Below are positions 20,801-43,105 of a stretch of DNA of 64,000 nt, piece after piece. Each line of letters begins with the position of its first letter. Position 1 is the first letter of the stretch. Source of the DNA: Marsupella aquatica (taxonomy: Eukaryota > Plantae > Marchantiophyta); assembly GCA_973895155.1 (NCBI GenBank), contig OZ316893.1:11608259-11672258 (forward strand), in the 5' to 3' direction. Made by a program: the position numbers and the translations under genes. The notes beneath the pieces are model-generated. The model was not told where the DNA came from, ran no database searches, and worked only from the letters and a program-made list of their open reading frames with translations.

Positions 20801-21761
20801 TCAAGCCAGGGCACCGTGAGTGAAAAGGAGGAGGATTAGAGTGGTCGTACGGACGTGGTTGTACGGCCCCTTGACTTTCCAACTTTTTTGTGAGGGGTCA
20901 CTCACGGGCTTTTTGGAAAGAGCTCGCTGAGCTGATTCCAACAAGAGGCGGCGCTCCTCAAACGGAGCCAGGATGAGCAAGTTAGGGCCCGACGAAGTTG
21001 GGTTTACGGGATACTGAAACGACCATAACTTGGTCGTCCAATGTCCGTTTCAAGAGCGGTTGAGTGCTTCATGATCAAGAGGAGGAGGGCTATCCAGGGG
21101 TGAACTCAGAAGTGCAAGTGGAAGGGCGCCTAGTTTCAGCCATTGTGGGGTTCCTTGCAATTTCACGGTTCACGGAGTAACGTTGGGGCACCGTCGAAGG
21201 CACCGTTGGCCCCATTGTTAGTTTAGGGTTTAGGGTTTTAGAAGCATGTGTGTGCCGCATGGTTTTAGTTTAGGGGTTTCTTAGTAAAGGGTTTAGCGGC
21301 ACCGCTAGGATAAGCCGCCATCGTTGTGGACCAATGAGGGGTGCTTTGGTGTGTTTTTTTGGTATTTAGGGGGAGGGCCCCGGAGTAGTTGCGGGGGGGG
21401 GAACTCAGTCTAGTATTTGCTTAGGGAAGTTAGCTCATAGCCAGAAGAGGGAATCAAGCCAGAGTAGTGAGGTAGAGGTGTAGCACTTGCCCCAGTGAGG
21501 CAGTAGTTGGGCAGACGGCAGGAGGCCGGGTTGTCCTTGCAATGTGTTACGATGTTTTGCCAAAAGATATGGATTTGGTTTGATTCTTCAAGTTTTGGTG
21601 TGGCGTTATTTTTTCTGGTTCAAGATTGTGCTCTTTCCCCAAGAAGTGTCTAAGGAATCCTTGCACGGTTTGGTCAACCCTGTGAGTAGGAGGAGTGGTG
21701 ACAACACTCCACCAACGACCAGTAGGAGTGTGTGTGTGGCGTAGTCCATGGGACTTGATCA
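17853..21761 (+). mobile_element. LTR-retroelement-derived GC-rich unit (solo-LTR-like) carrying a long accessory ORF
   Basis: Abrupt GC-rich block starting TGTCAAGT and ending CCATGGGACTTGATCA, with internal short repeats and an LTR-like tail containing GACCATAACTT and TTTAGGG motifs. No gag/pol. No TSD found, so the boundaries are tentative. Confidence 0.55.
18969..20839 (+). pseudogene. Retroelement accessory protein (PMD-like N-terminal part, acidic linker, coiled coil); one frameshift near 20380
   Basis: ORFs 18969-20411 and 20381-20839 overlap in different frames. Motifs TGLTEFMKV and FSFTPRNI resemble SGLEAFVRL and FYLTPKVI in the 32.3-35.8 kb ORF. Confidence 0.6.
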
Positions 21762-22561
21762 AAAGCAGAGCGGCTAGTCGATAGACTTGATCAAAAATTA
21801 CATTTCCGGAGCGGAAATAAACATACTCATCCTACATGCAATAGAATCCTAATAGCGTCCATCCACATTCTCGTCATACGATAACAAACGATTTTAGTAG
21901 GAATAAATACGTATTTTCCATGTAAATCGTTTGATAAGCAGGTGACAGGCATGGAAGGGAAGTAGCCTCGACTCTTCCTAGAAGGTGATAGTCTCACAAA
22001 AGTGTCTTTAGAACACTAGTGTGGGTGAAATGCAGACTCGGTGAGGGAGACCGACCACTTTTTGTTGGTGACTTTCCGTCTGGCAAGGCATTTGCATTTG
22101 TTGCAAGGGAAGGTATGAACCTACTAACTAAACTCTTGCATCTTTTTCCATAAGTGCATTCTTGTGAGCATGGTACTAGACAAATAATATAAGGACTTCT
22201 AATTTGCAAAATGTTGTTGTTGTCTTGTTTTGCTTGCCAGAGTAGTAGGAGAAATGGTCCATCAACCACATAGGATTGATTATCACCGAGTTGGGGGAAA
22301 TGTTGCACTTAGGCTTCCTGGAAGTCATATACGTACATACCATGACTTACAAGGTGCCCTCAAAATGTCCCATGGGAAGGTGGTGGCTTGGCTGATGGAT
22401 GGTATGTCCATGCAAATCTCTGCTGCTATTAGCGCTCATCATAGACAGGATGAAGAGGAAGTAATAGCACTTGAGGGTCCTAATGATTTTGGATGGATAA
22501 ATAATGAACACCTTGCTAATGAAGAGGACTTGAGAACATTTGGGATCATCGCCGAGGTACT

Positions 22562-22928
22562 TGTTGGGTATTTACTCTTACGTCTAGGTTAGGTATGACG
22601 TGGTTGGTACAACAACGTGGTTATGTACAACTATGTGGTTAGGTACAACTACGTGGTTAGGTACAACTAAGTTGCACACTATATCATAAGAGGCATGTGT
22701 GCTTGGAGAGGTAGAACCAAGGCTCATTGTTATGGAGCCACTTGAGAGATAGGGAGAGCTTACACTGTGGAGACTCGGTATAGCCGACGGGCTTAGAGTT
22801 CAGTAAAGCTCTCTTGTGTGTTCCCGTGGACGTAGCCTCAAGGAGGTAAACCACGTATCTCTTGTGTCGACTATTGTGCGTTGGATGGTTCATGGGCTTG
22901 CTGTTGCGATCGTCGTCTATGCTCAACA
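22562..22928 (+). repeat. Copia 5' LTR (367 bp)
   Basis: TGTTGGG...CTCAACA; direct repeat of 28587-28935. Confidence 0.96.
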
Positions 22929-22930
22929 AT

Positions 22931-22942
22931 TGGTATCAGAGC
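22931..22942 (+). promoter_or_regulatory. Primer binding site (initiator Met tRNA)
   Basis: TGGTATCAGAGC, 2 nt after the 5' LTR. Confidence 0.93.
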
Positions 22943-24081
22943 ATGCTTGGGAGGTGACGTGTGTTCGTGACAGGATTTCATGACGGTTTTTCCAGCGTTG
23001 AGTGTCGGTGGGTTTCCCAGAGTTCCGTCGCATGGAACTTGGAGTTTATTGGCTCAACGGATAGATCAGGGCAAGAGCTTTCTAACGGTGTGAAGAAATC
23101 GCTGAACGGAGCTCGTGGTGCAGAGAGATCTAAGTTTTCGTTGTTCTGGATTTTGTGAAGAAAGTTGGCAATCGACTCGGAGGGAGAAGCGTCAAGTGTT
23201 TTGACTCAACGGAGAGATTGAGGCAAGACGATTGTTTTGAGTCCGGGATTGGCTCTTTGATGCAAAGAGGAAGGCTAAGCAAAATCAATTACCTTGTTGG
23301 ACTTGGTGACGGCACCAAGTGCAATTGATCAACATTCGTTGTTGACAAGGTACCATTTTTTTCTCTTTGAAAAACTGATTCGAAATTGGCTATGGCAATT
23401 GAAAGAAATCTGTCATCTTTCCCATTTTTTTTCTCCCTCGTTCTTTCCTCGTTTTGGGTGCTTCTTATATCGATCTTCACCGCCTCGGAGTCTAGTTTCC
23501 AAATCTGAAATCAGTTCTTGATTTCGTCAAAACTCGAGTGAGATATCTTGCGTTTGGTGTCGAGGGGTACATTCTGCCGTGTGTATTTTCTGCGGGCGCG
23601 ACCAGATTTCGACGACGAAGGATGGTAGGGGGTTTTGGGGGTTCGAGGACACGTGTCAGCCCCTCGATTGTTCTTCCAAAATTCTCACAGGGCCTGTACA
23701 AGGGTCATAGAATATTCCAAAAAACCAGAGAGCTATTTTTTGACCGTCCGACAAAGATTTCATCCGCCGAACGGTAACTTTTTTGGTTATTTTTCGGCGA
23801 GGTCGTAGCCATTGAAGTTGGCAACGCGGCGCACCAATCACATCGCAATTCCGACAACGGGTTGTACTTGGTATTTTGGTTATTCCCTGAGGTGGTCAAA
23901 ACGGGGGAGTTTCCCAAGGTTTTACCCACCTCGATCGAAATTTGAATAACTTTTCCGTCAAATTTCAATTTTGATTTCGGTTTTCAGTATTGGACTCCTA
24001 GCTTTGTGGGCTACGCGGCGGTGTTGAGTTTCGAGTTTTTTGAGAAGTTGTGAAAAACAACATTTTTTGTGATTTTCTCAT

Positions 24082-27000
24082 ATGAGTGATTCGGAGGAGT
24101 TTTTTGAAGACGTGGAACTTGAAGCACGAGGATCACCGCGGAGGTTTCAGGGGCAGAGAGAGGAGCAGGAGGAAGAGCACGTGACACCGATACCATCACC
24201 GGTGCGGCGTGTGGTGGAGGAAGCAGTACTACTACCGAAGCTCACGGTAATGCCAAAGAAGAAGATGGGGACTTTCAAGCTTGGGGGGCCTAAGTATGAA
24301 GTGACAAAGTATGATGGGTGCTCTGACTACTTGCTATGGGAGAAGCGGGTGAAGGGAGTGCTCTATGCGTCAGGGATGGGCCAACTGCTGAGCCCTCGTG
24401 AAGACGATGTTGATGAGAAACAATGGGACCGCATGCAGGAGCAGGGAGTGTGGTGTGTTACACTCTATCTCATGTCTCCCATCATCAAGCAGTTGGGTGC
24501 ACATAAGGATTGCATGTCCTTGTTTGCGGAATTGTAGAGCAAGTATCACCGCAAGGAGTTGTCGAACCGGCTCTACACTTCCTACAAACTGATGAGTTTC
24601 AGGATGAAGGAATCCGGTACGAAGTTGCAAGACCATGTGGATGCTTTCAACAACATGGTCGTTGACTTGGAAAACCTTGGGGAGACTTTGAATGATGAGA
24701 CGAAGGCTCTACAGCTTCTTAGTTCATTGCCTCAATCTTACCAGTCCCTATCACGAGTGTTGTTGCATCGTGATAGGGATACCATTTCATACAATAACGT
24801 GGTAAGTTCTCTGCTTAGTGATGATCTTCAGCAGAAGATGCACATCACGTCACAGCCTTCATCATCTAGTGCTGCCCTCAATGTTAACCGTGGGAGGAGT
24901 ATGCAGCGACCAACTGGGGACCGTAGAACCCAGTTTAGATCTAAATCCAGATCTAAGTCCAAGGGTAAATCCCCTCAGAGGAGGAAGGTGACATGTTGGA
25001 AGTGCAACCAAGTTGGACACTTCAAGCGAGACTGTAAGGGAAAGGCAGCGGAAACTTCATCGGCAAATGTGGCTAGGGCTGATGGAGAAGCTGATTTACT
25101 CAATGATGAGTATGTTTTATGAAGTCGGGGGTATGCCCTGTGCACGTCATCTAGGAGAGCAGATGATGTGTGGATTCTTGATTGTGCTTGCTCTTTTCAT
25201 ATTTGTTACATTCATGAGTTTTTCAGTTCTTACTCTGTTTCAAACGGTTCAGTTCTGATGGGAAATGATCACTCCTGTCAAATTGAGGGAATTGGGTCTG
25301 TGAAGATTCAAATGTTTGATGGCGCTATGCGCACAGTGTCCGGAGTCAGGTATGTACCTGGCATGCGTAAGAATCTGATTTCACTCGGTGTGTTGGATTC
25401 AAATGGTCATCAATGGAGCGTTATTGATGGTGAACTTCAAGTCAGGTCGGGAGAGATAGTGATTTTGAAGGGGAGTAGACAAAAGAATTTGTATGTGTTA
25501 CAGGGCAATACTGTATGTGGAGAGGCCAATGTAACCAAGTCTCACGAGGAGATGACTCAACTGTGGCATTCACGGCTAGGCCACATGAGTGAGAAGGGTT
25601 TTGGCTATCTTACGGAAGAATGGACTCATTTCTGATTTGCAATCTTGTAAATTAGAGTTTTGTGAGCATTGCATTCTTGGAAAGCAGCATCGTCGTGCTT
25701 TTGGTGTTGGAACTCATCGTTCCAAAGCGATTCTTGAGTACATACATAGTGACGTGTGGGGTCCATCCCCGACTCCCTCACACTCTGGAAAGTTGTACTA
25801 TGTATCATTTATTGATGATTACTCAAGATTTGTGTGGATTTATTTCATGACGCATAAGTCTGATGTCTTGTCCATTTTTAAGAAGTGGAAGGCCTAGGTG
25901 GAGAATCAGATTGGAAACACGATCAAGTGTTTGGATACAAGGGTGAAGAGTCTGAGGTCAGACAATGGCGGGGAGTACACTTCAATGGAATTTGAAGAGT
26001 ACTGTTCAAAACAAGGGATAACTCGCCATGTCACCATAGTTTATACTCCGCAGCAGAATGGTGTCGCTGAGAGGCTCAATCGGACACAGTTGGAGCGGTC
26101 ACGGAGTATGTTGAGCCAATCAGGTTTACCACAAGAATTTTGGGCAGAAACTATCAATACCGCAGCTTATTTGGTAAATCTTTCTCCTTCTAGTGCTATC
26201 AATTTCAAAACGCCGTTTGAGATGCGCTATAAGCGGCAAGCAGACTATCATGGCTTGGTAGTTTTTGGAAGTGATGCATATGCTCTCACACCGAAGCAGA
26301 ATAGGACCAAGTTGGATCTTACCTCCAAGAAATGTGTTTTTCTTGGGTACCAGAGTGGTGTGAAAGCCTATAGGCTATGGGATCCTATTGCCTGTAAGCT
26401 CGTTGTCAGTAGGGATATTTCCTTCAATGAATCCAAATTATTGAAGGAGGGGGAGAATACTCAGGTCTCCCGTACTGACAAAGGAAAATCTCTTATCCCG
26501 GATCTCGTTGAGGGGGAGATTGGTTATGAGGTGCATGACCGAAGAGAAGGAGTTGCTCCAATTATGGAGCTAGTTCCTGTGCCAGAGGAACCAAAGGAGT
26601 TTGTTGATGCTGGTGAGCAGCAAGTGGATGCTGTTGAGCTTCAAATTGTACCAGCATACGCAGATCAACCGGAGTCATCGGCTAGAAGAACATCTGGTCG
26701 CACTGTACGCGCTCCACCAAGGTATGGACAGTGGGTTGATTCATCTCAACTGCAAGAGGATGATTTTACAGCTGATGATGAGGGTGATGCGTTAATTTTG
26801 GAAGAAGGGGAACCTTCTTCATTTCATGAGGCAAGTGCTTCAAAGGAGAAGCAGAAGTGGACTGCAGCAATGCAAACGGAGATGCAGTCACTAAAGGACA
26901 ACAAAACTTGGGAGCTTGTTAAGCTGCCTAAGGGTCAGCAAGTGGTGGACAACAAGTGGATTTACAAGCTGAAGGATAATTCCATAGGAGGTGGATCGAA

Positions 27001-28396
27001 GGTCTACAAGGCTAGGTTGGTAGCAAAGGGATTCACACAAGAGAAAGGTGTGGATTACAATGAGGTCTTCTCACCAGTTGCTAAGTAGTCTATAATACGA
27101 CTATTGTGTGTACTTGTTGTAATGTTTGGTCTGTTGCTAGATCAGATGGATGTTGTCATAGCTTTCCTCTATGGCACATTGGAAGAGGTGATCTTCATGA
27201 GACAACCGCTAGGTTTTGTGAAGAGAGGACAGGAGGAATTGGTTTGCAGATTGCTGAAATCCTTGTATGGGTTGAAGCAGTCACCAAGACAGTGGAACAA
27301 GCGGTTTGACGATTGAATTCGGTCACAAGGTTTTCACAGAAGTGTATTTGACCCTTGTGTGTATTTGAAACCGGAAAAGAATGTTGTCTTTGGGTTCATT
27401 GTTTTAGTACTTTATGTGGATGATATGCTAATTGCAGCCAAGGATAGGTCTGAGATTGTTAAGCTCAAGGCACTGCTTAGTGCAGAGTTTAAGATGAAGG
27501 ACTTAGGACCAGCTAAGAGGATTTTGGGTATGGAGATCACTAGGGACTTGGAGGCTGGCAAGCTATGGTTGACGCAGAGCAGTTATGCGAGGAAGGTAAT
27601 TGCAAGGTTCAACATGGGGAATAGCAAGCCAGTAAGTACCCCGTTGGCTCCACACTTCAAGTTATCATCAGCGTTCTGTCCTACGGATGACACAGAGAAG
27701 GGGTTGATGTCAAAGGTTCCGTATGACAAGGCAGTGGGGAGTCTAATGTATTTGATGACTTGCACTAGACCTGATCTTGCCATGGCTATGGGCAAGGTGA
27801 GCAGGTACATGTCGAATCCAGGGAAGGTACACTGGGAAGCAGTGAAGTGGATTATCAGGTACTTGAAAGGTACCGTGGATCATGGTCTTTTATTTGATGC
27901 GAATGCAAAGAATGCTAAATCATTGATTGGCTATGTTGATTCTGACTATGGACAAGATTTGGACCGAAGGAGATCAACAACAGGATACGTGTTCACACTT
28001 GGCGGTGGATGCATAAGTTGGAGATCTACTTTGCAGAAGTGTATTGCTCAGTCTACTACAGAAGCGGAGTATGTTGCAGCTGCGGAAGCAGCAAAGGAAG
28101 CGATTTGGTTGGATAGACTTATCACTGAAATGGGATTGCCACAGGGGAATGTGAAGCTCCATTGTGATAGTCAAAGTGAGCTCCACCTTGCTGTGAACCA
28201 GGTGATGGACAGCAGAGTGAAGCACATTGACGTCAGGTACCATTTTATCAGGCAGGCTGTGTCTGATAATTTGTTTGAGCTAGTCAAGATTGATGGTAAA
28301 CTCAACCCGACTGACGCATTTACCAAAGTGATTCCTTTGGAGAGTTTCTCTAGACACCGTGACGTATTGCAGGTTTTGCAATTGCATCACAAGTAG
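24082..28396 (+). pseudogene. Copia gag-pol polyprotein with stops and one frameshift
   Basis: Zinc knuckle CWKCNQVGHFKRDC, protease WILDCACSFH, integrase LWHSRLGH / HSDVWG / RSDNGGEY / QQNGVAER, RT YVDDML and RNaseH HIDVRYHFIR. Stops end at 24537, 25122, 25897, 27088 and 27316; an extra T lies near 25600. Confidence 0.95.
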
Positions 28397-28575
28397 AGTT
28401 TTCTTAACATTCATTGTAATTACTGATATATGCTCTTCCTCATTCCTATGTATTAGGCTACGGCTTAGTTCTGGTTTGCTCTAGTTAGAGAGGGAAACCG
28501 GTTTGGTTTTTGTCCAGAACTTCCCGCTGAGGGATCATATACATTGGCAGTATTACTCTCCCCTAGACCAGAGTC

Positions 28576-28586
28576 AAGGGGAAGAT
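28576..28586 (+). promoter_or_regulatory. Polypurine tract
   Basis: aaggggaagat immediately before the 3' LTR. Confidence 0.85.
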
Positions 28587-28935
28587 TGTTGGGTATTTAC
28601 TCTTACGTCTAGGTTAGGTATGACGTGGTTGGTACAACAACGTGGGTTGGTACAACTACGTGGTTAGGTACAACTAAGTTGCATACTATATCATAAGAGG
28701 CATGTGTGCTTGGAGAGGTAGAACCAAGGCTCATTGTTATGGAGCCACTTGAGAGATAGGGAGAGCTTACACTGTGGAGACTTGGTATAACCGACGGGCT
28801 TAGAGTTCAGTAAAGCTCTCTTGTGTGTTCCCATGGACGTAGCCTCAAGGAGGTGAACCACGTATCTCTTGTGTCGACTATTGTGCGTTGGATGGTTCAT
28901 GGGCTTGCCGTTGCGATCGTCGTCTATGCTCAAGA
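28587..28935 (+). repeat. Copia 3' LTR (349 bp)
   Basis: TGTTGGG...CTCAAGA (terminal CA changed to GA), followed by TSD GTACT. Confidence 0.95.
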
Positions 28936-29118
28936 GTACTTTCCATATCATTTTCCATTATACTTTCAAGATTGCTTTCTTTCACTAATCCTTGTTTTTC
29001 TAGGTTTTCATTCAAGTAAACCTCTTCTAGCATCTTTTAAAAAAGAAAAAGAAAATTGGGGTTTTCCGAAATGTAGAGGTCTTGTCATTGGTACATCCTG
29101 ATTTAGTATTGTTGTGTG

Positions 29119-29446
29119 CTCGGGGGGGTCACTATATGGAGGGTCATACATCGCGTGCGACGTTTTAGGGTTTGACCCCCCTAACTTTAAAGTGAAAAAT
29201 ATTTTTTTGCAAAGCCCTTTCTTTCTTAAAATTTTGTCATTTTTTATTAAAAAACCCCTAAAAACTTTATAGAAAGTATTTTTTGCAATTAAATAGGCCT
29301 ATGTGTTCTTTAAAGTCGACCAATCAATAAAACATGCCCTATGTGTTCTTCCACCAAACTTTGGAAGTCTTCCGCCACACCCATTTAAATGGGCCTATAC
29401 TTCGTCGCACGTGATGTGTCACTTCCGTGGAAGTGACCCCCCCGAG
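29119..29446. mobile_element. MITE-like insertion with 15-bp terminal inverted repeats
   Basis: CTCGGGGGGGTCACT at 29119-29133 and AGTGACCCCCCCGAG at 29432-29446, with an AT-rich interior. It splits a Cys-rich exon (..YCC / SCGALL). TSD unclear. Confidence 0.7.
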
Positions 29447-31379
29447 ATCTTGTGGTGCATTGTTATCCGTTTCAAACGGTGATGAGTCCATTCCTAACGA
29501 GGCATCACCTTCAGACGAAGAGGAAGATGATTTAGACTTGGACACTAGTGTATTTGACCACATGGAGTCTGGAGAGGAGGATGCAGACCACATTTGAGAT
29601 TCCAACATAGACGTGGAAAATGGTTCTATGATGTCCAACTCCCAGGTAACTTTGTTTAGGGTTTCTAATCCTTTTGCTGTGTGTTACATTTGTTCCATAA
29701 ATTGACAAGTCATGCAAATGATGAACTTTACTTTACATAAACAAAATGCATTCATTTTATGTAAACCTTAGTACCTTCAACTAGGAAACAATAATGCAAC
29801 CTAAACTCTTCACAGATGTCAAATGAGGATGGCGGGGAGGATGGAGCCATTCCTTTGTTGGAAGTGGCTGATCCAACTACATTTGGATTAGACAATATGG
29901 TTTTCATGGATTCTGGATTTGAAGAGAATCACACTCAGGTATTGTATTTTTTCACAATGTTGCCCTTCACTTTCATATATTGGCATCAATTCATAGTTTT
30001 AATTATATCTTTTCTATTTACTGCATCTTTACATAGTTTACTAATTATTGTGTGCTTTTCTAGGCATCTACTTCTTCGGAGCAAGTACAAGTTGACTCTC
30101 GTTTGGATTTTGAGTACGAGCCATCGTCTCAAGAAAATACAAATGAGTCAGACCCTGAGAGTGTAGTGGAGTCTGCTTTTTGGCAAAAAAGCAAAGTCCA
30201 CGAATTTTTCTAGGAATTTTGTGTGGATTGTCGTGTTGAAGGTTGCGATGGTAAGTATTTGGTTGAGGACATTGTGACCCATCATCAGTTGTGGATATTG
30301 AAGTTGAAGTGCCCAACAGGGCATACACAATCTTTCATGACTGGAGAGAATGAACTTCATAGAGGTATGTAAACTGCTGACATTTACACTATTTTTTAAC
30401 TTTTGCAAATATTGGATTGATTTAATATTGTGTGTTATCTTTTAATATTTTTTTATAAGATCTTGTTTTCTCTTGATGATTTACAGGCGTACCCGCAATC
30501 ACTGGACTAATTTACCATTCCGCTCTCTCTGCTGGTCTAACACACAACATCATATGTGAACTATTCTCTCACATTCAAATCCATGTTCCAAGAAACACCC
30601 ATTGGTTTCGATTTCAAAATGGAGCCCAAAGAGACATTGGATGGATTGCAGCAGTACTGCAAGTCTGGAATGATAAGAAACAAAGGTTGCAACGAAGCCT
30701 AGCCGAAAGAGATGGTATGTCAATCTTCTTTGTAGTGAAGCATTTGCTAGTTAGCAAGATTGATTCATGAATTTATCAATTTACTACATACTAGGTTGTT
30801 AGAGCATGCAGATACATGTTAGTTTCTAACTATTATTTTGTGGATTTATGATAATTGTAGGTTCCACTCCAATGATTTTATATGTGGATTGTCATTGGAA
30901 CTCATCACGTTCTGGATATCATGGCACTGTTCCTGTGATAGACGTGGTAACTAGTAAGGTAGTGGAGCTTGTAACCATTGACCGAGTTGAGGCTGGGAAT
31001 TCAGGCGCTATTGAAGCAATTAGTGTTCGTCGTGCTCTACAACATCTTCAGGATGTTGGAGTTACAATTAGTGAGGTTGTTCACAATGATAACAACACAG
31101 TTGATGCTATTCTTCGTGAGCTCAATGTTGATAACCAAAAGGATCTATGGCACAAATGTAAGAATCTTTTGAAGCAGTTTAACAAAGAGCTAGCAAATGT
31201 GAAAGAAACAGCACCTGCTGGTGGGATTGATGCTGCAATATCCTTGCAAGAATTGGGCAGATTCACTGTTCAAGTGTTGTCAAGTTGGTGCAAGAACCAA
31301 AATTTGAGGCATACAGGCAATAAGATAGAGTTGGTGCACCGCATAGGAAGACATAGAGGGCTTCCAGAGGAGGACATCA

Positions 31380-34300
31380 TGTGGTGCGTCCCATGGCTCC
31401 CTAAACCCAAGAAACCCCCCAGCTCAAGCCGATTCCCGCAGATTTCGCGCTTGGCGAGGCCGTTTCCGCGGCTTAGCGGCATGGGACGCTGCTAACCTCC
31501 TCCTACTATTACTATTAGCCTTTTACCCACATATACTGGACAGATCCTTCATCGGGTCATCAGATACGTAGCCGGCCTAATCTAGGCCTTCCCTCGTCTT
31601 CCCCTCCGTCTTGTTAGGTATGTTTGGATTCCGCCGCCGGAATGATCCCCAATAGGCTTGGTTAAGCCGCTAAGACCTCTCTCAGCTCGACACATCCAAC
31701 TCTCACTCCCCTGCTTACTTTCCTTCCTTCTAGTTGATGTGGGCACTCTTCACACAAGTTAATGCGACACACAAATAGCAAAATGACTCATTCTGACTGA
31801 GTCATACCATGCACTTGCCATACAAACAGTAGATCTCATACACAAGCTCTGCGAACTAAGCCTTGAGGCCAACTCTATTTAGCTCTTAGGCATGAGGAAA
31901 CATGAATATACACAAGGGTCACTGTATGACTAACCAAGAGCTTCTCTTACTACTTGATCCCAGCCTGGCTGGTGCAAACTAAAAACTTGCTAAAGAAGAG
32001 GCCCTGAGCTCCCCGCTGCCCAGGTACTTATCCTGGTAGTGGATCCGCCTAATTCTTTGCAACGTAAGCCTAATCTACCTAACAGTAATCTACTTGCCCG
32101 GATCTACCTATGTACAGCAAGGCACGAGCACAAGTGTTGCTCCTACCAGTGGAACCGCAATCCCACTAAGCTATGTGTCAGGGCCGCTCCTGGTCCTGAT
32201 CCTAATCCTAAACTTGGAGATCAGCGCCCGCCCTGCCCACTCACGCCTCCTCCCTCCACGTCCGCCCTTCCTAAAAGGAACGGTGCCCTTGCACTGTCAC
32301 GACACCGGTGGTGGATCCTCAATGGACGCCCCCAATGCTTCCTCCTCAACCACTGCCGTAGGTTCGTTTTCTGACAGATTACCTGCCCTTGACTGAGTCA
32401 ACTCTCCATCGGCCTGACTGGGTCCACCATCGGCGTCGGCATCGGCTCGGGAATCATTCTCGGCTACGGCCTCAGCCTCGGCTACGGTTTCCCCGGCTTG
32501 CTCAAGAGGCGGATCTGGGATACCGGCCTCATGATTGAGTAGTTCGGCTTGGGCCGCACCTTCCCCACCCTTGGTGATAGCGGGATCTATTGCCGTGTTC
32601 ATGCCGGAGGTTGGTGCTGGGTCTACCTCCTTGGTCACCACGGCCAGTGGAGTCGTATTACTCCTTGACCCTGAAGGTTTCCGCTTCTTCTTCTTTTTTG
32701 GTTCGGCAGCTGGTCCCTTCCCCTTCCCACTTACTTCCGGCACTCGTGCAGGTGGCGCGGCTTTTTCTTCGGCCAGTATCACTCTTGGTAACTTGGTTGC
32801 CCCAATTGGAGTTGGGCCTGATGAAGACAAGCACTTAAATACTGCGGCTTGTTTCTTCAGCCACTCTGTTTGGTTGTCGGCCCGCCGCTGGAGGTTCTCC
32901 ATCTTCCTCGTGATTTCCTCCAACTCCTCCTGGGTCTCATCCAGGTCCTTGCGCGCCTCCTCTAGTTCCTTTTGGGCTTCCTCCCGTTCTTTCTTCAAGG
33001 TAGCCCTCTCCTCCCGGGTTGCTCTTAGCTCCTTGTCGAGCTCTGCAATGATGACAGACTCCATCTGATTCATCTTGGCGTAAGTCTGATCGAGCATCTC
33101 GTCCTTCTCCCTTAGGTCGGCCTTGAAGCTGGCCGTCAGGGACGCAAGCTCCTGCTGCAGCGCCATAATCCCTTAATAGGATTTTCCTAACTCGGCCTCC
33201 TTCTGCTCAAGGGCTCCGCGGATTTTCTCGAGCTCCCCCTTCAACGCCCATTCCTTTCTTTGGGTCTCCGCCATGGCCCGGCTGTTGGCTGTTATGTGGG
33301 CCTCCTCTGCATTCCTCAGCTCTCGCTTCCACTTCTCCCTCTCTTTGATCGTATCGGCCAACTCTCCCTACGTCTGAGTCAGTTTATCCTTGATATTCTG
33401 ATTATCAGCCTGCGCGGTGTCCAACTGCCCCTGCATGATGTTCAGCTCATGCCGTTTAATCCGCAGTTCATCTTGGGCTTTCTTGGCCGCCCTTAGATCT
33501 TCAATCTCGGCTTCCATCCTCCTAAGCCGCCGAATGACCTCGTCCTTCTTGCTTCTCTCTAAAGCCACCGCTTCTTCTAATTGGTGCTTCTCCAACTGCT
33601 CCCTATGGAAAAAGGGTCCTACCTCCAACTCCTCTCCAAAGATGTCGAGTGCAAGTTCCCCACACATCTCACCATACTCCATGGCCCAATTCTTAGCGTA
33701 GGTGGAGTAAGTAGAAGTGATCGGCATCGCCCATCGCGGCCTCTGCTCCCAAGCCGTCTTGCGGATCTCTTCAATCGTGGCTAGAGGTTTGCTTCCTTTT
33801 TTGGCTAGCCGCCTGATGTCCTCCGGCCAATCTCCTCCTGGCAAATCCTTTTCTCTAGCCAGGGCTGCCTCCTCTTCCTACCTCATTCGCTCCTGAAATT
33901 CCTGCGCCGTCTGTTTTATGCCGTCAAAGCTCGGGGGAGCAACATCTGGTGGGGGAGACTCAGGGCTACTCTGCTGGTTGGGGTCCCCTCGTACTACCCT
34001 TGGAAGTGTGGGGACAAACCGGCCACAGGTCCTTACTCCTGGAACGTGATGGTCCGACCCATAGCCGGAGTTATCATGGCTGCAGTCCTCCACTGCCTCC
34101 TCTACTTCTTGGACTTTCGGCTTCTCCCTCTCCTCTTCGTCCGTAGGAGCTTCAGGCAATTCAGCCTCCGATTCAGAGCTTGAGACTCCCACATACATTC
34201 GAACACCTGGCTTGGATTCCGGCCTGATTCTCTCCTTGTCTCTAGCAAAGGGGTTTTCTCTTGTGAGCCGGTGTAGGCCTACCTATGGAGTAGTGTCCTG

Positions 34301-35954
34301 CATTGTTGCCGTTGCCGTTGTCGTTGCCGATGCCGATCTCTTTTCTTTCTCCAGTAGTTTCAGCAGACTCTGCATGCCTGGTTGCTGCATCGGCAAGTCC
34401 TCCTTCCTTGGCCTAAACACCTGCTCGATCGTAGGGCTAACAGGTGGTTGAGGCTTCTTTGCTACCGGCCTCGGTGCTGGAGCTTCCTCGGGTGCCCTTA
34501 CCTACAGGGGAAGTACTGGGGCAAAAGTCTGACCTCTGGCATACCGGCACAACAACAGCATGTGATAGCCAAGCCGCGACACGCTCCCCATGCCGATTAC
34601 CTGTTGCTCCTCCTTTAAGATTTTCTTCAATTGGTTGAGGAGGTACCCGTTGTAGTCCCGGCTTGGGTCTGGCCTCTCTGCCAGATAGACCTGTGCCTTG
34701 CCGATCTCTGCCCTCGGCAAGTTACAATGCATGGTCACCCACAAGAAGTCGATCATCTCTCCTATGTGCGGGTTGGTGCAGGTGTTCCGAAAGAAGCCAT
34801 TCTTTGTTGATGGCCCGGGGAACGACCGGAACTCCTTGTCAGGCAAGGTCTTCCTGGTATCAACTTTGGTCTTATTGCCTATCGGCAAGCCAAACACTTC
34901 GGCAATCACTTTGGGAGTAAGATAGAAATCCTTCCCATATATCCTCGTGCAATTGGTCTCAGGTTCCCATGACCCCACGAATTCTAATAGGTCTGACTCT
35001 GGTACCTCCGGCTTCAGCCATGGTAATCTTACAAAGGCCTCTAAGCCGGATCCGGCCATGAAGCCTTGGTACTTCTTGGTCTGCATGGTCGTAAAGCATG
35101 CATCCTCCTCCCGTGCAAAATGTAGTTGCACCTCCACCGGTAGGGTTGCCGCCCAGCCCTTCCAGGTGTCATCCCTGGTTGGAATGGCCTTGATGGGATC
35201 AACCTCCTCCTCTTCAGCTTCTCCCTGCCTCCTGCTCTGCTGCTCGGCTGGCTTCTTTGGTGCCGCCGACCTCGTTCTTTTTGCCGGGGTGGCTTCATCG
35301 TTGACGGCTCCCTTCCTCTTCATCTCTGCTGCCGTGGAGGTTTCTCCTAGCACCGTTGCCTGGGTCTACCTTTCCGTGCTACCCTTCAATTCCCAGTGTA
35401 TGTCGTTGCAGTTCTTGATGGCCTCTCGGATGCCGACGACGCTGTCTTTGCAAAACAGAAGATCGTCGAGTTGATTGGAAGTAGGAGTCCACAAGAACTC
35501 GTCCTTGATGAGTTCGCCTCCTAAGAAAGCCGTCTTCTGCAGCTCCCACAATCGAGCGAGCTCCTGCCGTTCTTGAGTTGCCCTTTCTGATTCCTCGTCC
35601 TCGTAAGTCTTGATGTACTCAGTTGCCCGTTCGAACAGGCATCCCTAGAAATGTGCTGCTTGATTGACGTTGCTCATACCCTCCTTAGGTCGATCGTCGG
35701 TATCTACTCTCTCCCCGAGTGCTTGCCTAAGCAGCTGTCAGTAGTTGGCCTCCCGTAGTCGTCTGCCTAGTTCGTGCTCATAAACGAGCCACCATCTCCT
35801 GCAAGCGCTCCTTACCCCTGGCCTCGGCCTGGGTTCCATAGTCGCCCCTAATTGTTTATATTTTCCTTGTTTTGTCCCTATACTAAGGTGTTTCTAGGGT
35901 GCATTCCTGCTTTACCCACTTCACTGGCCGAGTGATTCCTGGCTAGGCATCACA
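31380..35954 (-). mobile_element. 4,575-bp TG..CA element with 5-bp TSD (solo-LTR-like) inserted in the transposase
   Basis: Ends TGTGGTGC...GCATCACA; CATCA duplicated at 31375-31379 and 35955-35959. The host reading frame is restored on excision. Confidence 0.9.
32297..35839 (-). pseudogene. About 1,180-codon PMD-like/coiled-coil protein with about 8 in-frame stops and no frameshift
   Basis: Track ORFs beginning at 35551, 35353, 34198, 33844, 33361 and 33166 share one frame with an ATG at 35839. Motif LLEFV.SW..RIYGKDFYLTPKVIAEVFGLP resembles plant mobile domain / TE accessory proteins. Confidence 0.8.
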
Positions 35955-37639
35955 CATCACATTGCGCACCAGGAGGCAGTTAAAGTATCCAGAACTGACA
36001 GAGAAACAACTTGGTGATAAGTTGAAGAGTTGGTTCTACTATTGTTGCTGCAATGCAAAAGAAAGGTATGATGGCAACTACGGTATTTAATTGCATTGAA
36101 ATTAGCTTGAGCAATGAATTTGTTCATCATTTTAACTAAGCTAACTCTTGAATTATATTGTAATGACTACTTACTAGCAGAGGAAATGATGATGCTACCA
36201 TGTTGGCTAGGGAGATCATCACAGCAGCTGATCATTGGGCTGGCAACCATATATGAACCTTGCAAAAGCTTTCTTCCTCGCAAGTGTTGTGAGGAAGGTG
36301 CAACTTATATGCCATACTATGCGGCAGGTACAGTGTATTGATTATTAAATTTGGTTATGTACTTATGAGATAAATAAGGTGTTTGGATTGTTACCTAATC
36401 TGTTGGGATTTCTAATATTTGCAAGTATATGGAATCTTGTGGATTTTTCAGGGGGTGCTACTCATAGAGCTTTGAAGCAATGGTTGCAGAAGAACGTCAC
36501 TGCAGTCAATGTTTGCTTCTATACTAGAGCCCGAGCAAAATTTTTCAGTGAAACATTTAATGGAAACATCAACAAATATGCTATGAAGAGGATTCATTTT
36601 TCCATGACTCATGAGGCCCGCATGGCATGTGTTGCAATGTGCTGGAATGAAAACATTGGTCGAGAGGTGGTACGAGTTTGAACACGGCAGCCTAGTAATA
36701 CATGTACCCATCAGCGTACATCAAGGGTTCGTGACCTTGTTCCTAGAATCATCAGGTGGAAGAAAGTCGTGGGCTGTACCATATTTGGAAGAGGTGTAGA
36801 CTATGATATGTGATACTTGGTTAGTACATTTATTTTGGCAGGAAACTTCCACCCTTGTCGTGCATTTGACATTTAGAACATATGTAAGTTGTAGGTTTTA
36901 CTATATTCATTTGTCATGTTTTCAGTCCCATATATCACCTTGCCATTTACTTTTGTTTTTGTAATGGAATATATATTTGTAGGATGTGAAAGTTATATTA
37001 GGCGCGCTTAGCACCCTCAATGACAGTTGTGAGTATGTCGTTGTATATCAACTTTGGGAATACATGAACTTTGCAAATATTTTTCATAATTTCACAATAC
37101 TCCAAAGGGGAATTGAACCCCTTGTGCTGCCATCCAGTAGGAGTTCCAACCCAAAGGAGGGGGAAGGAGGCACAAGCCAAACAAACACAAAAAAACAAGT
37201 AGCACAAATAACCCAGACAATGAAAATACTAGGAAAAAACAAATATAGATACATTAAAATAAAAAAACTTTCAAAAACCAAATAACCAGGATGGTGTTTG
37301 CTTCGCATTTCCCAAGGAATTTGCAATGCAATTGGGAGAAAGAAGGAGGCACATGCCAAACAAAGAAAATGAAATAATATAGTAGAACAAAGAAACCCTG
37401 GAACAATAAGTAAACATAGATGAAAACATAGTTACATAGCTAAGAGCACTAGAGGCATACACCAACATCATGTTTGCTTAGAAACTCCCAAGTTATTTAT
37501 ACTTGCGGTTGGGAAAGGAAAGGAGGCACATGTGAAACAAACATGACAAAACCGGTGAAAACAAAGAACCCATGAAAAAATAACTCAAGTGATGACACAA
37601 CAATGATGAAAAAAAAGAAAAAAAACACAACTTAGAAAC

Positions 37640-38571
37640 CTAGAATCGGAAACCCACATGTTGTTCGCCTGGTAGTTCCCACGTGGACTGCACTGCAGCT
37701 ATGACTGCTGCTAGGAAGGGTGTTCCATCCCCAAAGCTAGCAACATATGCTAGCTTGCGATACACAACATACCCTTGTCTACGAGGAACTGTTTCAGTGT
37801 ATGCCCATGCGGCACACATATGAAAAGCTTCAGCTGTCGCAGGGGAAAGAACCTGGGCAAAGTTGAGGTCCCGAAGGTTGTCGTCTATCGCCGTGCAAAA
37901 AGTTGGGAACCTAGCAACTATGTCAACATGTCTCAACAATCAAAAATTTTGACGTCCCGGTGGAGGAATAGGCCATGATAAGTGATATATGTGATCTCCA
38001 TAGGAGATCAGCTCCGCCGGTCTGTTTTGATGCTCAACGCTCCTACAAAACATAGGAAATTGAACAAATGTAGTTAGCATCCCTACAAAACTAAGCCAAC
38101 AATTGTTGTTTGATGGAGGTTATATTTTACACCAAATTGAGGAAGAACAAACAAGTATTATGCGCGCATGAAGGAAAGTCAATTGTAAAAAAATTCACAT
38201 ATTTTGCTAAGGTAAGCAAACTAAGTATATGCATGCAAACTTGCCACATAGAAGTGCACACATGGCCAAAAAGAAAATGAAGGGTAAGTACCAAGTATCA
38301 CTCATGCATAATTGAAGGTATTCGGTCAACAAGAAAATGAAGGGTAAGTACCAAGCAAGTTTCACTCATGCATAATTGAAGGTATTCGGTAAATTAAAAA
38401 GAAAATGAAGGGTAAGTACCAAGTTTCACTCTTGCATAATTGAAGGTATTCGGTCAACAAGAAAATGAAGGGTAAGTACCAAGTTTCACTCATGCATAAT
38501 TGAAGGTATTCGGTCAAGAGAGAGTTCAAATTGTAGACTCTGCATGATTGAATGTACCTGGAATTATTCAT
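37640..38571 (-). pseudogene. KolX-like accessory gene (exons 38571-38558 and 38042-37640; frameshift near 37940)
   Basis: C-terminus R.GY..YRKLAY...G.G.P..AAVIAAV..TW..PGEQHVGFRF* fits the recalled KolX / P2X7-tail-like motif YR..AY..G..P.CV...IR..FP...Y.GF*. It is convergent with the transposase. Confidence 0.65.
38270..38518. repeat. About 60-bp tandem repeat x4 inside the KolX-like intron
   Basis: Unit aagaaaatgaagggtaagtaccaagtttcactcatgcataattgaaggtattcggtcaac. Confidence 0.92.
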
Positions 38572-38574
38572 GCC

Positions 38575-38831
38575 GATTGCAAGGGTGATCGAGAAACCAG
38601 TCAATAACTCCAGGGCGATTGAGAAACCAGTCAATAACTCCTAGGGTAAGTCTATTCTGATGTTCCAAGAACAACTGAACTGCACTCGGTCGATGGAAGA
38701 ACGATTGCAAGGGTGATCGAGAAACCAGTCAATAACTCCAGGGCGATCAAGAAACCAGTCGATAACTCCTAGGGTAAGTCTATTATGATGTTCCAAGAAC
38801 AACTGAACTGCACTCGGCCGATGGAAGAACG
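38575..38831. repeat. About 128-bp tandem duplication containing 30-bp subrepeats
   Basis: gggtgatcgagaaaccagtcaataactcc x4 and gggtaagtctatt..gttccaagaacaactgaactgcactcgg..gatggaagaacga x2. Confidence 0.9.
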
Positions 38832-39192
38832 AAACCAACTGCAAGAACAAATTTCCTCTGCAAAATGTTTTGCGGAGCTAAACTGCAATGTTATGCCGAG
38901 CTAAACTACAGAATGGCCGATCGAAGAACAACGAACTGCAAAACGGTTGATCAAAGGAACATAGAAAGTTTTCTAGTTACTCGGCCTTGAGCTCATTCAA
39001 ACCAAGGAACAGAGAAAAGGAGCTCATGTAGTTGAAGCATGCCCTTCTTATGGGAGTCGTAAACCCAAAAAGTGAGAAGCAGCACAAGCACATAGTTTGG
39101 TCGTAAACCGAAAAAGCAATCAAACCAATTATAGAAGTATGTGAGCTGTGAACGAGCACAATAGGCATGGGCAATAGGCATGGGGAAGGACT

Positions 39193-40600
39193 GTGAGTGT
39201 CTGTGGCCACAGTAGCGCTGATTTCATTGAGCTTCATTGGCCTAATGTAAGCACGTTTCCTGTGGCGGTGGCAATTGTGTTGGGGGCTGCTCTTCTCCTT
39301 TTCTTATGGGTGGTCCTGAATTGGGCACTGCGGCAAAGCATTTACTTGAACTCAAAGGCTAAAATTCCCAGAGGGTCCAATGGGTGGCCCCTGATCGGAG
39401 AAATGCTGGCTTTTGCGAATGCCAATCCTATAGAGTTTGCCACGCCTCGCCTGAAGAAGTAAGACCATCGTTGCACATTAACTCTTTACTTCTTCATTCC
39501 GATAGGCCAATGAATTCACTGAAGGGATTGTGAAGTAGCTCATTCATTTTTTGCACTATTTCAAGTCAATAGGTCGGCAAATATTTCTCCAGAAATTTGG
39601 GTTGTGGCTGCCGAACAATACCCATCCCTTCGCCAGGGGGTGTTACTCCTTTTCTCCCACCCTATGATAGTGGGTCTAAAGAGAGTGCACCTTCCAGCTC
39701 TAACACAAAAATCCGATACTCTCAAATAGAAGCAAAGAGAGATTGGAGATCCAATCCCCCAATGGCCTGTTGCCGTAAGAGCCTAATCCGATACTCTCAT
39801 TTAGAAGCAAAGAGAGATTGGAGATCCAATCCCCCAATGGCCTGTTGCCGTAAGAGCCTTCACTTTAGAAGTCATCAGTTTAACATAGTCATTTGAATGT
39901 CAGTTGGGCTAAGGTGTGATAAATTCTGAAAGTTTTTGCAATTAAATGGATTGCAGGTATGCAGCTGTCTTTAGATCCCATATAGCTAGAGTACCCTCGA
40001 TTGTAGTCACATCTCCGGATATGCCAAAGTTTGTGTATCCTGAAAAGAGTCTGTTCCGAGCAAGCTATCCGCGAAACATTGCAACTCTTATCGGCAAAAA
40101 ATCTCTTTCCAATTGCGACCCTGCGTGGCACCCCTTTTTGAAGAGAATCGTACACAGTGTTGTTCTTCCACAAACTCTAAAGCGTGAAGTGGGGCATTGT
40201 GCTAGACACTCTGAAGTCTTGGAATGGAAGAATAGTTCAGATAGCAGTAGAGAGGAAGGAGGTGAGTGCAATCCTGAATTTTCCACACTTAGAATCACGA
40301 GCGCAAACTTGAGATCACTGCATTGCTTTTGTTGGCAAGTGAAAGCTGGAATGGGACTGACCATCAAGAGACATAATGTCTGCCTTGAATGCTTGTCGTA
40401 ACAGCTACAAAAGCGACGAACATTTCTATTGGCTTTGTCCTACATGTCAGAACTACTAAAGGGAGAAAAAGATGTTTCGTTTTGTAGTGTGACGTTCTCG
40501 TCAATGCTTATCGAGCACTTTTGAAGGCCTTTTACGCCATCCCTATCAATCTCCCGGGCTTCACTTGGTGTAAAGCGCACTTGGTATAAAGCTTTGCAGG
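39193..40600 (+). pseudogene. Cytochrome P450, CYP85-clan-like, 5' exons only and degenerate
   Basis: Membrane anchor, hinge IPRGSNGWPLIGE, Y..VFRSHI...PSIVV, ASYPRN...LIG and a later AIPINLPGF..YKALQ segment. Frameshifted; no heme-binding exon seen. Confidence 0.8.
39710..39859. repeat. 75-bp tandem duplication in the P450 intron
   Basis: aatccgatactctca..tagaagcaaagagagattggagatccaatcccccaatggcctgttgccgtaagagcct x2. Confidence 0.92.
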
Positions 40601-41299
40601 TATCACGTCTGTCCAGGAAACGAGCTTGAGAAGCTGAATACCTCCCTGCTCTGCTGCAATTGACTCTGCAATGGTTTACACATGCAGCATGGGAGGAGGA
40701 AAAGCATTTGGACACTGGTGCATCATGGGCGAGAGGACTTGCCCACCAAGGCTTCTCAAACTCACGCGGCCCTCCGTAAAATGAGTAGAGACACTGTGGG
40801 GCAGGTGTAGAGTTGACCGGGCCAAAAAGCGACCTGTTAGAAACAATCGGGAATGCCCGGGCCTGAAATAACTCCTATATTAAGCAACCTGGTATAACCA
40901 GGTTTTTACAGTGGACAGTGGTGGTTTAAAATAGAATTAAGAAGGACAGGACAGGACACGTGTGCTCCCATGAGGGCTATAGGGCTTCAAGTTGAAATGC
41001 ATGAAGCGTCAGTCTGAAAAGTACATAAGTGGAAGAAACTGAGAGGAAAAACCAAAATATCACCTTTTGAAATGATCTAAAATTTTGGCTAAAAACAGAG
41101 CAAGTGGACATTTTCCTTTGGGCCCACTCAAAGTGCCAGACAAGAAAAACAACAAAATTTAAGATTTGTATTTCTACTTTTAACATCTGGGTATACAAGC
41201 AATCAATAAACTTGCATGAAAAGGGAAGGTACAACTCTTGTAGGTTGTGGGAAGCACACATCCGACCCATTTTGACTTCCATAGATCACTTTTACATAG

Positions 41300-41490
41300 A
41301 TCCTCACACTCTCAAAGAACGAAAACCCCAAAACGGGAAAACCTCAAAACGGGGAGATAGGATCCCAAAGGCAAAAGATCCAAGAAAGGGGGGAGTGGTG
41401 GAGGAGAAGGGAAAGACCACAAGAGGGCCAAAGAGACCCCACAAGTCCAAGAGCCCCTAACAAATGCAAGAGAACACAAAGCTATCTAAA
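41300..41490. repeat. Dispersed repeat, probably a LINE 3'-end fragment; second copy about 51560-51730
   Basis: Shared tcccaaaggcaaa...(gt/g)ccaagag(t)cccc.aa..aat(g/a)ca blocks, each followed by a C-rich tract. Confidence 0.5.
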
Positions 41491-42858
41491 CATTATAACA
41501 TATTATTATCCTATCACTTTTCTGCATTATGTTTACAAAACCAATCTGGGTGGGAACAAACCATGGTACTTCCCTTTGCCCCTCACATTTCTCCTCCATC
41601 TTCCCTGACCTCCTCTCTTGTCCTTGCCTCCCTTAGCCCAAGCCCCACCCTTGCAACCCTCCCGGCCATCACTCACCAACCTGAGAAACAGTCAGCAGCA
41701 CCGCATGGTCCATGCCATGGCCCAACCCAACCCGACGTGCAATGCCATTGACTAGGTTTTGTTTTGACACCACTATTACATCAGCCCCAACATATCTCTT
41801 ACATCAAGCCCGACATCAACAACATCCTCAAAGACATTTCCCTCTCCCGCTATTTCTTTCGTCAATGACTTCCTTTGCCTGGAAGACACACCCTTGCATT
41901 GATGACACATAAGATATCTCAGCAACTTCCTTACCTCCACAACTTACACTTCCTTGCCTTACTTGCAGCTTTGTCTCACCTCGACATTTCCTTTGCAATG
42001 CACAGGCATTGGGGTTGTCTAATTACTGAAGTGTGAACAAAAAGCTAGGGTAAGGGCCAACACCTAGATAGTGACTTTAGGGACAGCTAACATTGGTGAA
42101 AAAAACTGAGAATGGGCACAATTTAGAGAGACAATACTCACCATCTACTCACAAGTAAAGCTCGGGCATTTAGGGTAGTCAGAATCATGGATCAGGTACA
42201 TAAAAACGATTCCTCCAAGGCAAAAAATAATAATTAACAAATTGCCATAAGAAAATTTTATTTCCTCCATATTCATAAAAAATCAAACCAAGGCAAACTA
42301 TCATGATAAATGATCAAAGGGAGAGAGTGATGGCATGAGTGTTTTGTGGGTCCTTTTCAAGGCACTGCTACCCTTCGTATGAGGATTATGCCTATCTTTT
42401 GAAGATGAAGTAGCCAGCTAGAGACAATGTTCCTGTCCACTACCACTGTTTCATATCTCATTCCTGGAGATGATTTCTCTGGAGCTAGTGGCAGGTGGGC
42501 AAGAAGTCTCCAAAGGTCCTTGTTTGACTTGTGCATCCATATCACTTTGACAAGATTAATATCATGAAGATTCTCCTTCACTTCTTCCTCTTAAGGAAAC
42601 CCCCAATCAAACTCACTCTCCTAGCTCCAATCCAGCTCCCTCCTCCCCCAAATACATTTCCTCCCTCCCCCAAATGCATTTCCTCCTGTCCCTGATCATC
42701 TCAGGGGTTAAGTAATTGGCTATTTTGAGATACCTTGTGCTATATTAGCCTAATTTTAATAACCTTATATATAATCAATATGTTATAAGGAGTATTTGTT
42801 ATTTTCACTTTAATTGACTACATTATTTTACAAAAGATATAGATATTAGAGGGATATT

Positions 42859-43105
42859 CTAAATGTACGAGCCCTATGCTCTGGCATTGCATGGCGCAAG
42901 GAGGGCCGGCCCATAGGGAGTCGGGCTGGGGCATTTAGGGGGCAGCGCGGGGAAGCACATATGCGCCAGGGGTGCCCATTTCCTCCATCAACAGCCAGGG
43001 AAAACAGCCAAACAAATCCAATGGCTGTGGATCTTTCCTGCCCAGGAGTTTTTTGTATTGGGACAAAGGACGAAAAAATGTGGGATCCCTTATAATAGTT
43101 GTAGA
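42859..43105 (-). mobile_element. Non-autonomous Helitron-like element, copy A
   Basis: On the minus strand it starts TCTACAACTATTATAAG and ends with a GC-rich hairpin then TTTAG. About 250 bp, homologous to 63411-63659. Confidence 0.65.

Follow-up and report, generated by a model that had tools for sequence, protein, structure and literature searches.

A dead, probably Kolobok-type DNA transposon with a TCP-like N-terminal domain in the liverwort Marsupella aquatica

Organization of the locus

A decayed DNA transposon lies in a stretch of 64,000 nucleotides from the liverwort Marsupella aquatica (NCBI GenBank assembly GCA_973895155.1, contig OZ316893.1, positions 11,608,259 to 11,672,258 of the forward strand), which is referred to here as the window and from whose first letter all coordinates are counted. 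A first-pass annotation of this sequence had placed a Kolobok-type element between 21780 and 38990, with a spliced DDE transposase gene hidden by nested insertions and facing a small convergent gene of the KolX type. The hidden transposase gene was confirmed. Once three nested insertions are excised it comprises eight coding exons, where about nine had been counted earlier, separated by seven GT-AG introns. The exons are as follows.

22254..22556, plus strand: exon 1; the first ~60 codons form a TCP-like (ribbon-helix-helix) N-terminal domain, followed by an acidic linker
29004..29645, plus strand: exon 2; acidic linker with stop codons, 5' boundary uncertain, 5' part without homolog support
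29816..29938, plus strand: exon 3; acidic linker, bounded by GT-AG, frame shared with exons 4-7
30064..30364, plus strand: exon 4; zinc finger C-x4-C...C-x2-GH, one in-frame TAG
30487..30714, plus strand: exon 5; pre-catalytic helical region (YHSALSAG...GWIAA), 46% to P0011
30861..31379, plus strand: exon 6, 5' part; first D at 30887-30889, second catalytic position (now N) at 31085-31087, DxxH at 31142-31153, SAP domain at about 31253-31345
35960..36065, plus strand: exon 6, 3' part; KYPEL...WFYYCC, in frame once the insertion is excised
36181..36327, plus strand: exon 7; zinc finger HWAG-H..C..RKC, frameshift near 36252
36452..36813, plus strand: exon 8; catalytic E at 36550-36552, KY-KR-HF and AR..WNEN; the TGA at 36679 is premature and the natural stop falls at 36811-36813; 62% to P0001

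The spliced model matches an intact protein of Riccia sorocarpa (P0009; collected proteins are given by P numbers) with an E value of 4e-123, at 43% over residues 108-522 in a single frame through exons 3-7, and in further segments at 50% over residues 548-659 and 34% over residues 8-74. The match to residues 8-74 is also made by exon 1 in tblastn (E = 1.3e-6), and exon 1 matches the N-terminal profile of the family with E = 1.1e-14. Identity to P0001 of Calypogeia fissa is 61-64%. The acceptor of exon 2 is uncertain, because this exon is not in phase with exon 1. All of the transposase motifs named in the first-pass annotation (VDCHWNSS, VHNDN, KDLWHKCK, WFYYCC, HWAGNH and SETFN..INKY..KRIHFS..AR..WNEN) lie where it had put them, far beyond chance as judged from the P0009 match, and its C-C-C-GH zinc finger is the one in exon 4.

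Two of these motifs, VDCHWNSS and VHNDN, are present as decayed forms; the closest relative, P0179 (74%), reads VDCRWDSS and VVHDDN at the same places. At the second catalytic position the window has N, whereas D stands in 47 of the 51 regex matches among the 89 proteins collected at that point. With this substitution, a 4.6-kb insertion that splits exon 6, a frameshift in exon 7 and stops in exons 2, 4 and 8, the window copy is a dead transposase pseudogene.

Superfamily assignment

The D, HD and E motifs of the family, together with its predicted fold, make up a DDD/E triad in an RNase H fold, and the C/DxxH signature, which follows the second D and precedes the E, is present as KDLWH. This signature is not specific to Kolobok, being common to Kolobok, hAT, P, MuDR and Dada (Kojima and Bao 2022, PMC9587614). 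According to PMC9587614, all Kolobok lineages but Kolobok1 carry a zinc finger between DxxH and E, which is found in none of MuDR, P and hAT; in the present family the finger HWAG-H..C...RKC occupies this place throughout. The family alignment contains no CCHC finger after the first D, as in the Kol0 lineage. When compared by eye with the alignment rows in Data S5 of Kojima and Bao, the motif set of the family matches the Kol0 rows and the Kolobok_16_CGi group: D-[CG]-R-[FY]-D-S resembles DARYS, DGRCDS and DVRYDT, the spacing from the first D to 'ME' is short, as in Kolobok_1_XT and _BF, HD and DLWH occur as in Kolobok_16_CGi, and W-Y-CC, DH..H..C..C and ExF[HN] likewise agree. The N-terminal THAP domain that is usual, though not universal, in Kolobok (PMC6004289) gave no match in Pfam scans, and the TCP-like domain occupies its place.

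The lineage thus shares with Kol0 (Kolobok-1_XT, -1_BF and -2_DR) and with the Kolobok_16_CGi, 1_OwFu and 1_MyEd rows a DDE core with DxxH, a zinc finger before the E, the lack of a CCHC finger behind the first D and, as its second gene, a small one whose C-terminus is KolX-like (PMC9587614). It differs from them in having a TCP-like domain in place of THAP, a SAP domain after DxxH and seven introns, and its hosts (liverworts, Chara and Closterium) are absent from the host list of PMC9587614. The green-lineage elements Kolobok_1_KlNi and Kolobok_1_MicRcc299 of Data S5, the first of which appears from its abbreviated host name to come from Klebsormidium, have the Kolobok-type DDE core in common with the present family but are of another type, marked by DGxW-type first-D motifs and by a CCHC finger that follows the first D.

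An AlphaFold model of P0009 (pLDDT 66) has the transposases of ISCth4 (IS256/Mutator), the P element and Hermes (hAT) as its best matches (ISCth4: Z = 13.4, root-mean-square deviation 5.0, 260 residues aligned; Hermes: Z = 11.0). In the model these three share the RNase H fold, a helical insertion domain and C/DxxH with the family, from which they differ in their N-terminal domains and at 8-12% identity. Separately, residues 385-573 of the model, in the helical insertion region, match PRIN2 of Arabidopsis (PDB 9ept_A and 8r6s_U) over about 90 residues (Z = 6.8-6.9, root-mean-square deviation 2.7-3.2), within the range of common helical arrangements.

Searches for terminal inverted repeats (TIRs) between 20400-22560 and 36800-41000, between 12000-22560 and 36800-43000, and between four left windows and 38850-39200 found nothing above shuffles, and no TTAA target-site duplication (TSD) was found at or near 21780 and 38990. 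The element ends that had been proposed at these two positions are accordingly unsupported, with neither a TIR pair nor TTAA at them. GGTTTAC/GTAAACC repeats near 17460-17550 and 39060-39100 were tried as termini and rejected, as they fail to extend into an alignment. Extra contig depth hints at element-like sequence to about 39060-39120, where the joints have just 23-25 letters on their short side, which is not enough to fix an end. On the left side, the end may have been lost under another insertion.

These failures, which weigh against Kolobok, would fit a transposase of the Mutator/IS256 type or of an unclassified DDE superfamily, with the convergent open reading frame (ORF) as unrelated cargo and not KolX; so would the missing RR..YY ends and THAP domain, the place of ISCth4, an IS256-family member, as best fold match, the 'MULE transposase domain' label that one Chara relative bears in UniRef, and PF20700 ('Mutator-like'), which is the sole transposase Pfam match, weak and above cut-off in one of 28 proteins. 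We nevertheless regard this account as improbable. At E up to 0.01 none of the 28 proteins has MULE (PF10551) or SWIM listed, a zinc finger placed between DxxH and E counts as a Kolobok trait in PMC9587614, and the C-terminal spacing of the small ORF equals that of the KolX-like piggyBac-2_GrCh_2p, with other copies restoring the matching P and R. IS256, hAT and P, which have C/DxxH in common with Kolobok, are the nearest folds to be expected because, to our knowledge, the PDB holds no solved Kolobok structure, and we know of no SAP, TCP-like or KolX parts in IS256, hAT or P transposases. The wealth of introns and the lack of detectable termini could also suggest a domesticated host gene instead of a mobile element. 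For the window copy this is scarcely credible and is largely refuted by the frameshift, the stop codons, the exon-splitting insertion and the lost catalytic D, as well as by many diverged copies in related runs and dozens of truncated ones in two Riccia genomes. A Kolobok-type DDE transposon in a land plant, as the first-pass annotation proposed, is well supported by the order and spacing of the motifs, by a fold of the C/DxxH group and by a multi-copy family in liverworts and streptophyte algae; Kolobok is the best superfamily assignment on these sequence features, and membership is likely but unproven because TIRs and a TTAA TSD were not found.

The convergent small gene

37640..38043, minus strand: last exon of the small gene, with a KolX-like C-terminus and an internal TGA at 37940-37942; its upstream exons were not located

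The minus-strand ORF ending YRKLAY...HVGFRF-stop that had been annotated earlier is present, with its stop end at 37640, and is convergent with the transposase. Its C-terminal spacing, R..[AG]Y..[FY] ... R...P......h...W........GF-stop, is that of the KolX-like piggyBac-2_GrCh_2p of Data S6, and a pattern drawn from this spacing after the sequence had been seen gave one hit in the window and none in 150 shuffles. The best-supported differences in other copies, L110 to P and G106 to R, fall exactly at positions that match the KolX-like spacing, and the internal TGA is an Arg codon in one loose contig end, read by hand. Copies of 37634-39470 were sought in contigs of four public runs that are ~98% identical at the host flank, with depth not to be taken as a copy number. 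Each run gave 109-233 contigs, many of them 80-95% alike to the window; those less than 95% alike made up from about one half to two thirds of the total in three runs and 37% in the fourth, X3, and up to 15-17 contigs covered single positions of the small ORF in runs X1 and X2. With so many diverged contigs, the small gene belongs to a dispersed repeat family.

Several results speak against a KolX identity. The gene has no match in Pfam or the PDB and no homolog among ten candidates of 73-233 amino acids, the sole length range searched; its Atlas scores are at most 0.86, and a fold search, uninformative because the single-sequence model had a pLDDT of 43, gave no match. KolX of the Kol0 lineage is recognized by a P2X7 ballast fold with seven cysteines, and this cysteine-rich half was not found. 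The earlier proposal of KolX is supported by the matching motif spacing and not by Pfam, PDB or fold matches, and the gene is likely to encode a KolX-type accessory protein.

The SAP and TCP-like domains

This lineage is distinguished by two domains that the earlier reading had missed, the TCP-like domain at the N-terminus and an inserted SAP domain. The latter lies in exon 6 between DxxH and the W-Y-CC helix (SAP, E = 3.6e-4; SAP_new25, E = 1.2e-4; both under gathering scores) and recurs in Riccia and environmental relatives. The N-terminal domain occurs together with the first-D and DxxH motifs in 23 of the 234 proteins collected, so that the TCP-like domain here is the N-terminus of DDE proteins and these are not stand-alone TCP factors.

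The whole-protein profile finds TCP15 weakly at its N-terminal positions (E = 0.22). In the PDB, profile A4, built from 16 transposase N-termini, matches TCP15 (E = 3e-6), PCF6 (3e-4) and TCP10 (0.05), and its 27 hits include no ribbon-helix-helix (RHH) protein. In profile A5, of 12 N-termini, three rows matching Pfam TCP were removed and four rows from the Chara clade of the tree were added; its best match is again TCP15 (E = 1e-6), and RHH proteins are absent from its hits up to E = 10. The alignment of A5 with TCP15 takes in the D-x-H loop and the R of the strand as well as the two helices and AEPA. The TCP fold is RHH-like and contacts DNA through an RxR saddle and DRH loops (PMC9841405); the D-Y-H of the transposases aligns to the D-R-H of TCP, and the second R of RxR is kept. 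What the domain shares with TCP factors (PF03634; AtTCP15 7vp3/7vp6, OsPCF6 5zkt, AtTCP10) is a strand-helix-helix unit of ~55 residues, the D-x-H loop, the strand R, the L-x3-LG turn, I-x-[WF]-L and AEPA, and what distinguishes it is its fusion to a transposase, its far greater variability and the absence of the first R of the RxR saddle.

Among single proteins, P0122 lies above the Pfam TCP cut-off (28.7 bits versus 23) and P0135 matches at E = 0.012, the other 24 of 26 scanned being without a match. P0122 bears the UniRef label 'TCP domain-containing protein'. That just one of 26 proteins passes the cut-off counts against the TCP likeness. So does the fall of class II PCF6 and TCP10 to E = 0.48 and 0.29 with A5, and so does the window copy itself, whose exon 1 alone has no TCP match in Pfam or the PDB. 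A profile of eight non-liverwort N-termini places TCP15 at just E = 0.25, below designed ankyrin repeats, while two of the eight match Pfam TCP singly (E = 0.016 and 0.051). In the Atlas structure search TCP is the first row with a TM score of 0.54, under the naming bar, and CopG-type RHH is next; by features the nearest named Atlas cluster is CopG RHH (0.75). Exon 1 does belong to the family of this N-terminal domain by its profile match.

Relatives and host range

A profile search returned 86 hits from 7993 scored candidates, each assigned by name to Riccia sorocarpa or to R. fluitans. Two Riccia genomes contain truncated copies by the dozen. When 1.84 billion representatives were searched exhaustively, 1067 of them matched at E up to 0.001; the 30 relatives looked up among the best 150 of these were six from Chara braunii, two from Closterium, ten from Riccia and 12 environmental or unnamed representatives. 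The 891-residue P0101 has near-identical counterparts (P0209-P0212) in transcriptomes under the labels Pyramimonas and Prorocentrum as well as in marine assemblies. These two cannot both host it, and the true host of P0101 would bear on the direction of the link to TCP factors.

A quick, provisional midpoint-rooted tree of this transposase family alone was made from 36 rows (62 core-covering rows minus most Riccia near-duplicates and two P0101 copies). In it the Chara, Closterium, environmental and liverwort rows separate roughly as their hosts do, and the window transposase pairs with that of Calypogeia (62% over 338 columns). A metagenome scan for the DNA context of relatives gave just two spurious matches of 22-23 residues, no relative was confirmed in scans of viral contigs and of genome contigs, and tblastn of one N-terminal domain against phages found no match. 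Streptophytes are likely to have hosted the lineage already before land plants arose.

Relation to TCP transcription factors

TCP factors are reported to have arisen in the ancestor of Phragmoplastophyta, with no possible ancestor found despite extensive searches (PMC9480096), and their ancestry is elsewhere stated as unknown (PMC9682074). All named hosts of the present transposon fall within Phragmoplastophyta. The N-terminal domain and TCP factors likely share descent. A generic RHH domain recruited independently, whose match to TCP reflects a shared small fold, is a good deal less probable: the nearest folds to TCP are bacterial RHH proteins (PMC9841405), single members weakly match RelB, RHH_1 and VAPB_antitox, and the aligned stretch is just ~55 residues, but PDB searches with A4 or A5 give no RHH protein at E up to 10 where TCP15 reaches 1e-6, and the match includes the TCP-specific D-x-H loop upstream of the strand and AEPA at the end of helix 2.

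For the direction of descent we tentatively favour a domestication, as a real possibility which we would not call probable: TCP factors (TB1, CYCLOIDEA, PCF) may have been derived, in the ancestor of Phragmoplastophyta, from the RHH head of this streptophyte Kolobok lineage, with donors surviving in Chara, Closterium and liverworts, and the terminal repeats may have seeded early TCP sites. A precedent for plant transcription factors derived from transposases is FHY3/FAR1, domesticated from MULE transposases (PMC13306707), which retain most of the transposase whereas TCP would retain just the small DNA-binding head. The reverse course, in which the transposon captured a host class I TCP domain as its DNA-binding head and TCP factors are not transposon-derived, seems rather unlikely. 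Class I TCP15 is matched far more strongly than class II, the likeness peaks among the liverwort members and is weak in the others, and no host is confirmed outside Phragmoplastophyta, P0101 coming from marine assemblies and two conflicting transcriptome labels, all of which speaks for a capture. The score gap could, however, be explained alone by class I being reported as the more conserved class (PMC9480096); the domain is found throughout the sampled lineage, including Chara and environmental members (hhalign A6 versus P0006, 95%), it is more diverse than TCP, and P0101 scores in an intermediate-like manner with both VAPB_antitox (E = 0.003) and TCP (E = 0.016).

Proposed mechanism and significance

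On balance we think it probable that the locus is a dead copy of a multi-copy, likely Kolobok transposon whose protein is predicted to bind the element ends through the TCP-like RHH domain and to cut and paste DNA through the RNase H-fold DDE core. From the observed anatomy we infer each functional step as follows. The N-terminal domains of two subunits would pair into a two-stranded sheet that reads subterminal repeats, and the TCP-like head would, by analogy, fill the role that THAP has in animal Koloboks (PMC6004289). The DDE core would then cut and join DNA, the SAP domain could contribute contacts to DNA, either non-specific or with the target, and the KolX-like protein may act as an accessory.

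In the literature covered, with Repbase, Dfam and subscription papers outside it, no description of this lineage or of a link between TCP and transposases was found. In the portions available, Kojima and Bao give chlorophytes and rhodophytes alone as plant hosts of Kolobok (PMC9587614), and Marchantia, Riccia, Chara braunii and Physcomitr- are all absent from their supplements; a spinach annotation has Kolobok among 67 minor elements, with no detail (PMC6337768); bioRxiv 2021.09.26.461848 and PMC8616336 contain nothing on this lineage or the TCP link; and a screen of 1007 plant genomes that included Kolobok reports recently active clusters in seven other superfamilies only (PMC12973397). The earlier suggestion of an undescribed land-plant lineage agrees with these results but has to be qualified, since the green-lineage Kolobok_1_KlNi is already in Data S5, though of a different type; a streptophyte Kolobok-type lineage with SAP and TCP-like domains is apparently undescribed.

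Kolobok-type transposons would thereby gain a distinct land-plant lineage, one that has two domains absent from the Data S5 rows compared. The origin of TCP is a stated open question, for which TCP-headed transposases of the same clade offer a concrete and testable candidate source. If the capture is true, it would be an unusual case of a transposase employing the domain of a host transcription factor. Inventories of liverwort TCP genes can be contaminated by these transposases, as the UniRef label of P0122 illustrates.

Nested insertions and neighbouring sequence

22562..28935, plus strand: Ty1/copia long terminal repeat (LTR) retrotransposon nested in intron 1; TSD GTACT; gag, zf-CCHC, rve and RVT_2, with stop codons in pol
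29122..29443, no strand assigned: G7...C7 miniature inverted-repeat transposable element (MITE); TIR GGGGGGGTCAC/GTGACCCCCCC; inside a CTCGAG site, CG duplication possible
31380..35954, minus strand: TG...CA element of 4.6 kb, GC-rich, TSD CATCA, decayed coiled-coil ORFs on the minus strand; divides exon 6
37156..37697, no strand assigned: three diverged ~178-bp copies between the 3' ends of the transposase and the small gene
38267..38832, no strand assigned: local tandem repeats lying upstream of the small gene (60-64 bp x4, 128 bp x2), skipped in other copies

The first-pass annotation had excised the Copia element and the TG...CA insertion correctly, and had rightly recognized an insertion at the MITE, where its cut (29119-29446) removes six host bases (CTC and GAG) besides. 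The LTRs of the Copia element are nearly identical (342 identities, seven mismatches, 18 gap columns). At its ends the MITE reads GG...CC, and its terminal GTGACCCC differs by one base from the TCP-type site GTGGNCCC; it is a candidate non-autonomous partner of TCP-headed transposases, with a target site that is not TTAA. The insertion at 31380-35954 has a 5-bp TSD, yet is without an internal LTR pair, gag or reverse transcriptase, and could be either an exceptionally long solo LTR or a retroelement with coiled-coil ORFs that is non-autonomous.

A second GC-rich element of ~4 kb (17618-21703, TGTGAC...GTGACA), with a 485-codon coiled-coil ORF at 18954-20411, has no Pfam match above chance, no matching TSD and no tblastx match to the insertion at 31380-35954. 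It adjoins the left side of the transposon, the end of which it may have removed or displaced. Directly past the right side begins a decayed gene (39170-40700, PRGSNGWPLIG), which we take from its look to be cytochrome P450-like; the two fragments of it that were scanned have no Pfam match. Further along the window, an inverted pair of ~245 bp (42867-43107 and 63409-63653), 81% alike and 20 kb apart, is either a small repeat present twice or the pair of termini of one large element. The stretch 53747-57764 holds a long ORF without a Pfam match followed by an ORF with PPR and LAGLIDADG_2, and an intronless ORF of the Sec1 family lies on the minus strand at 60585-62453.

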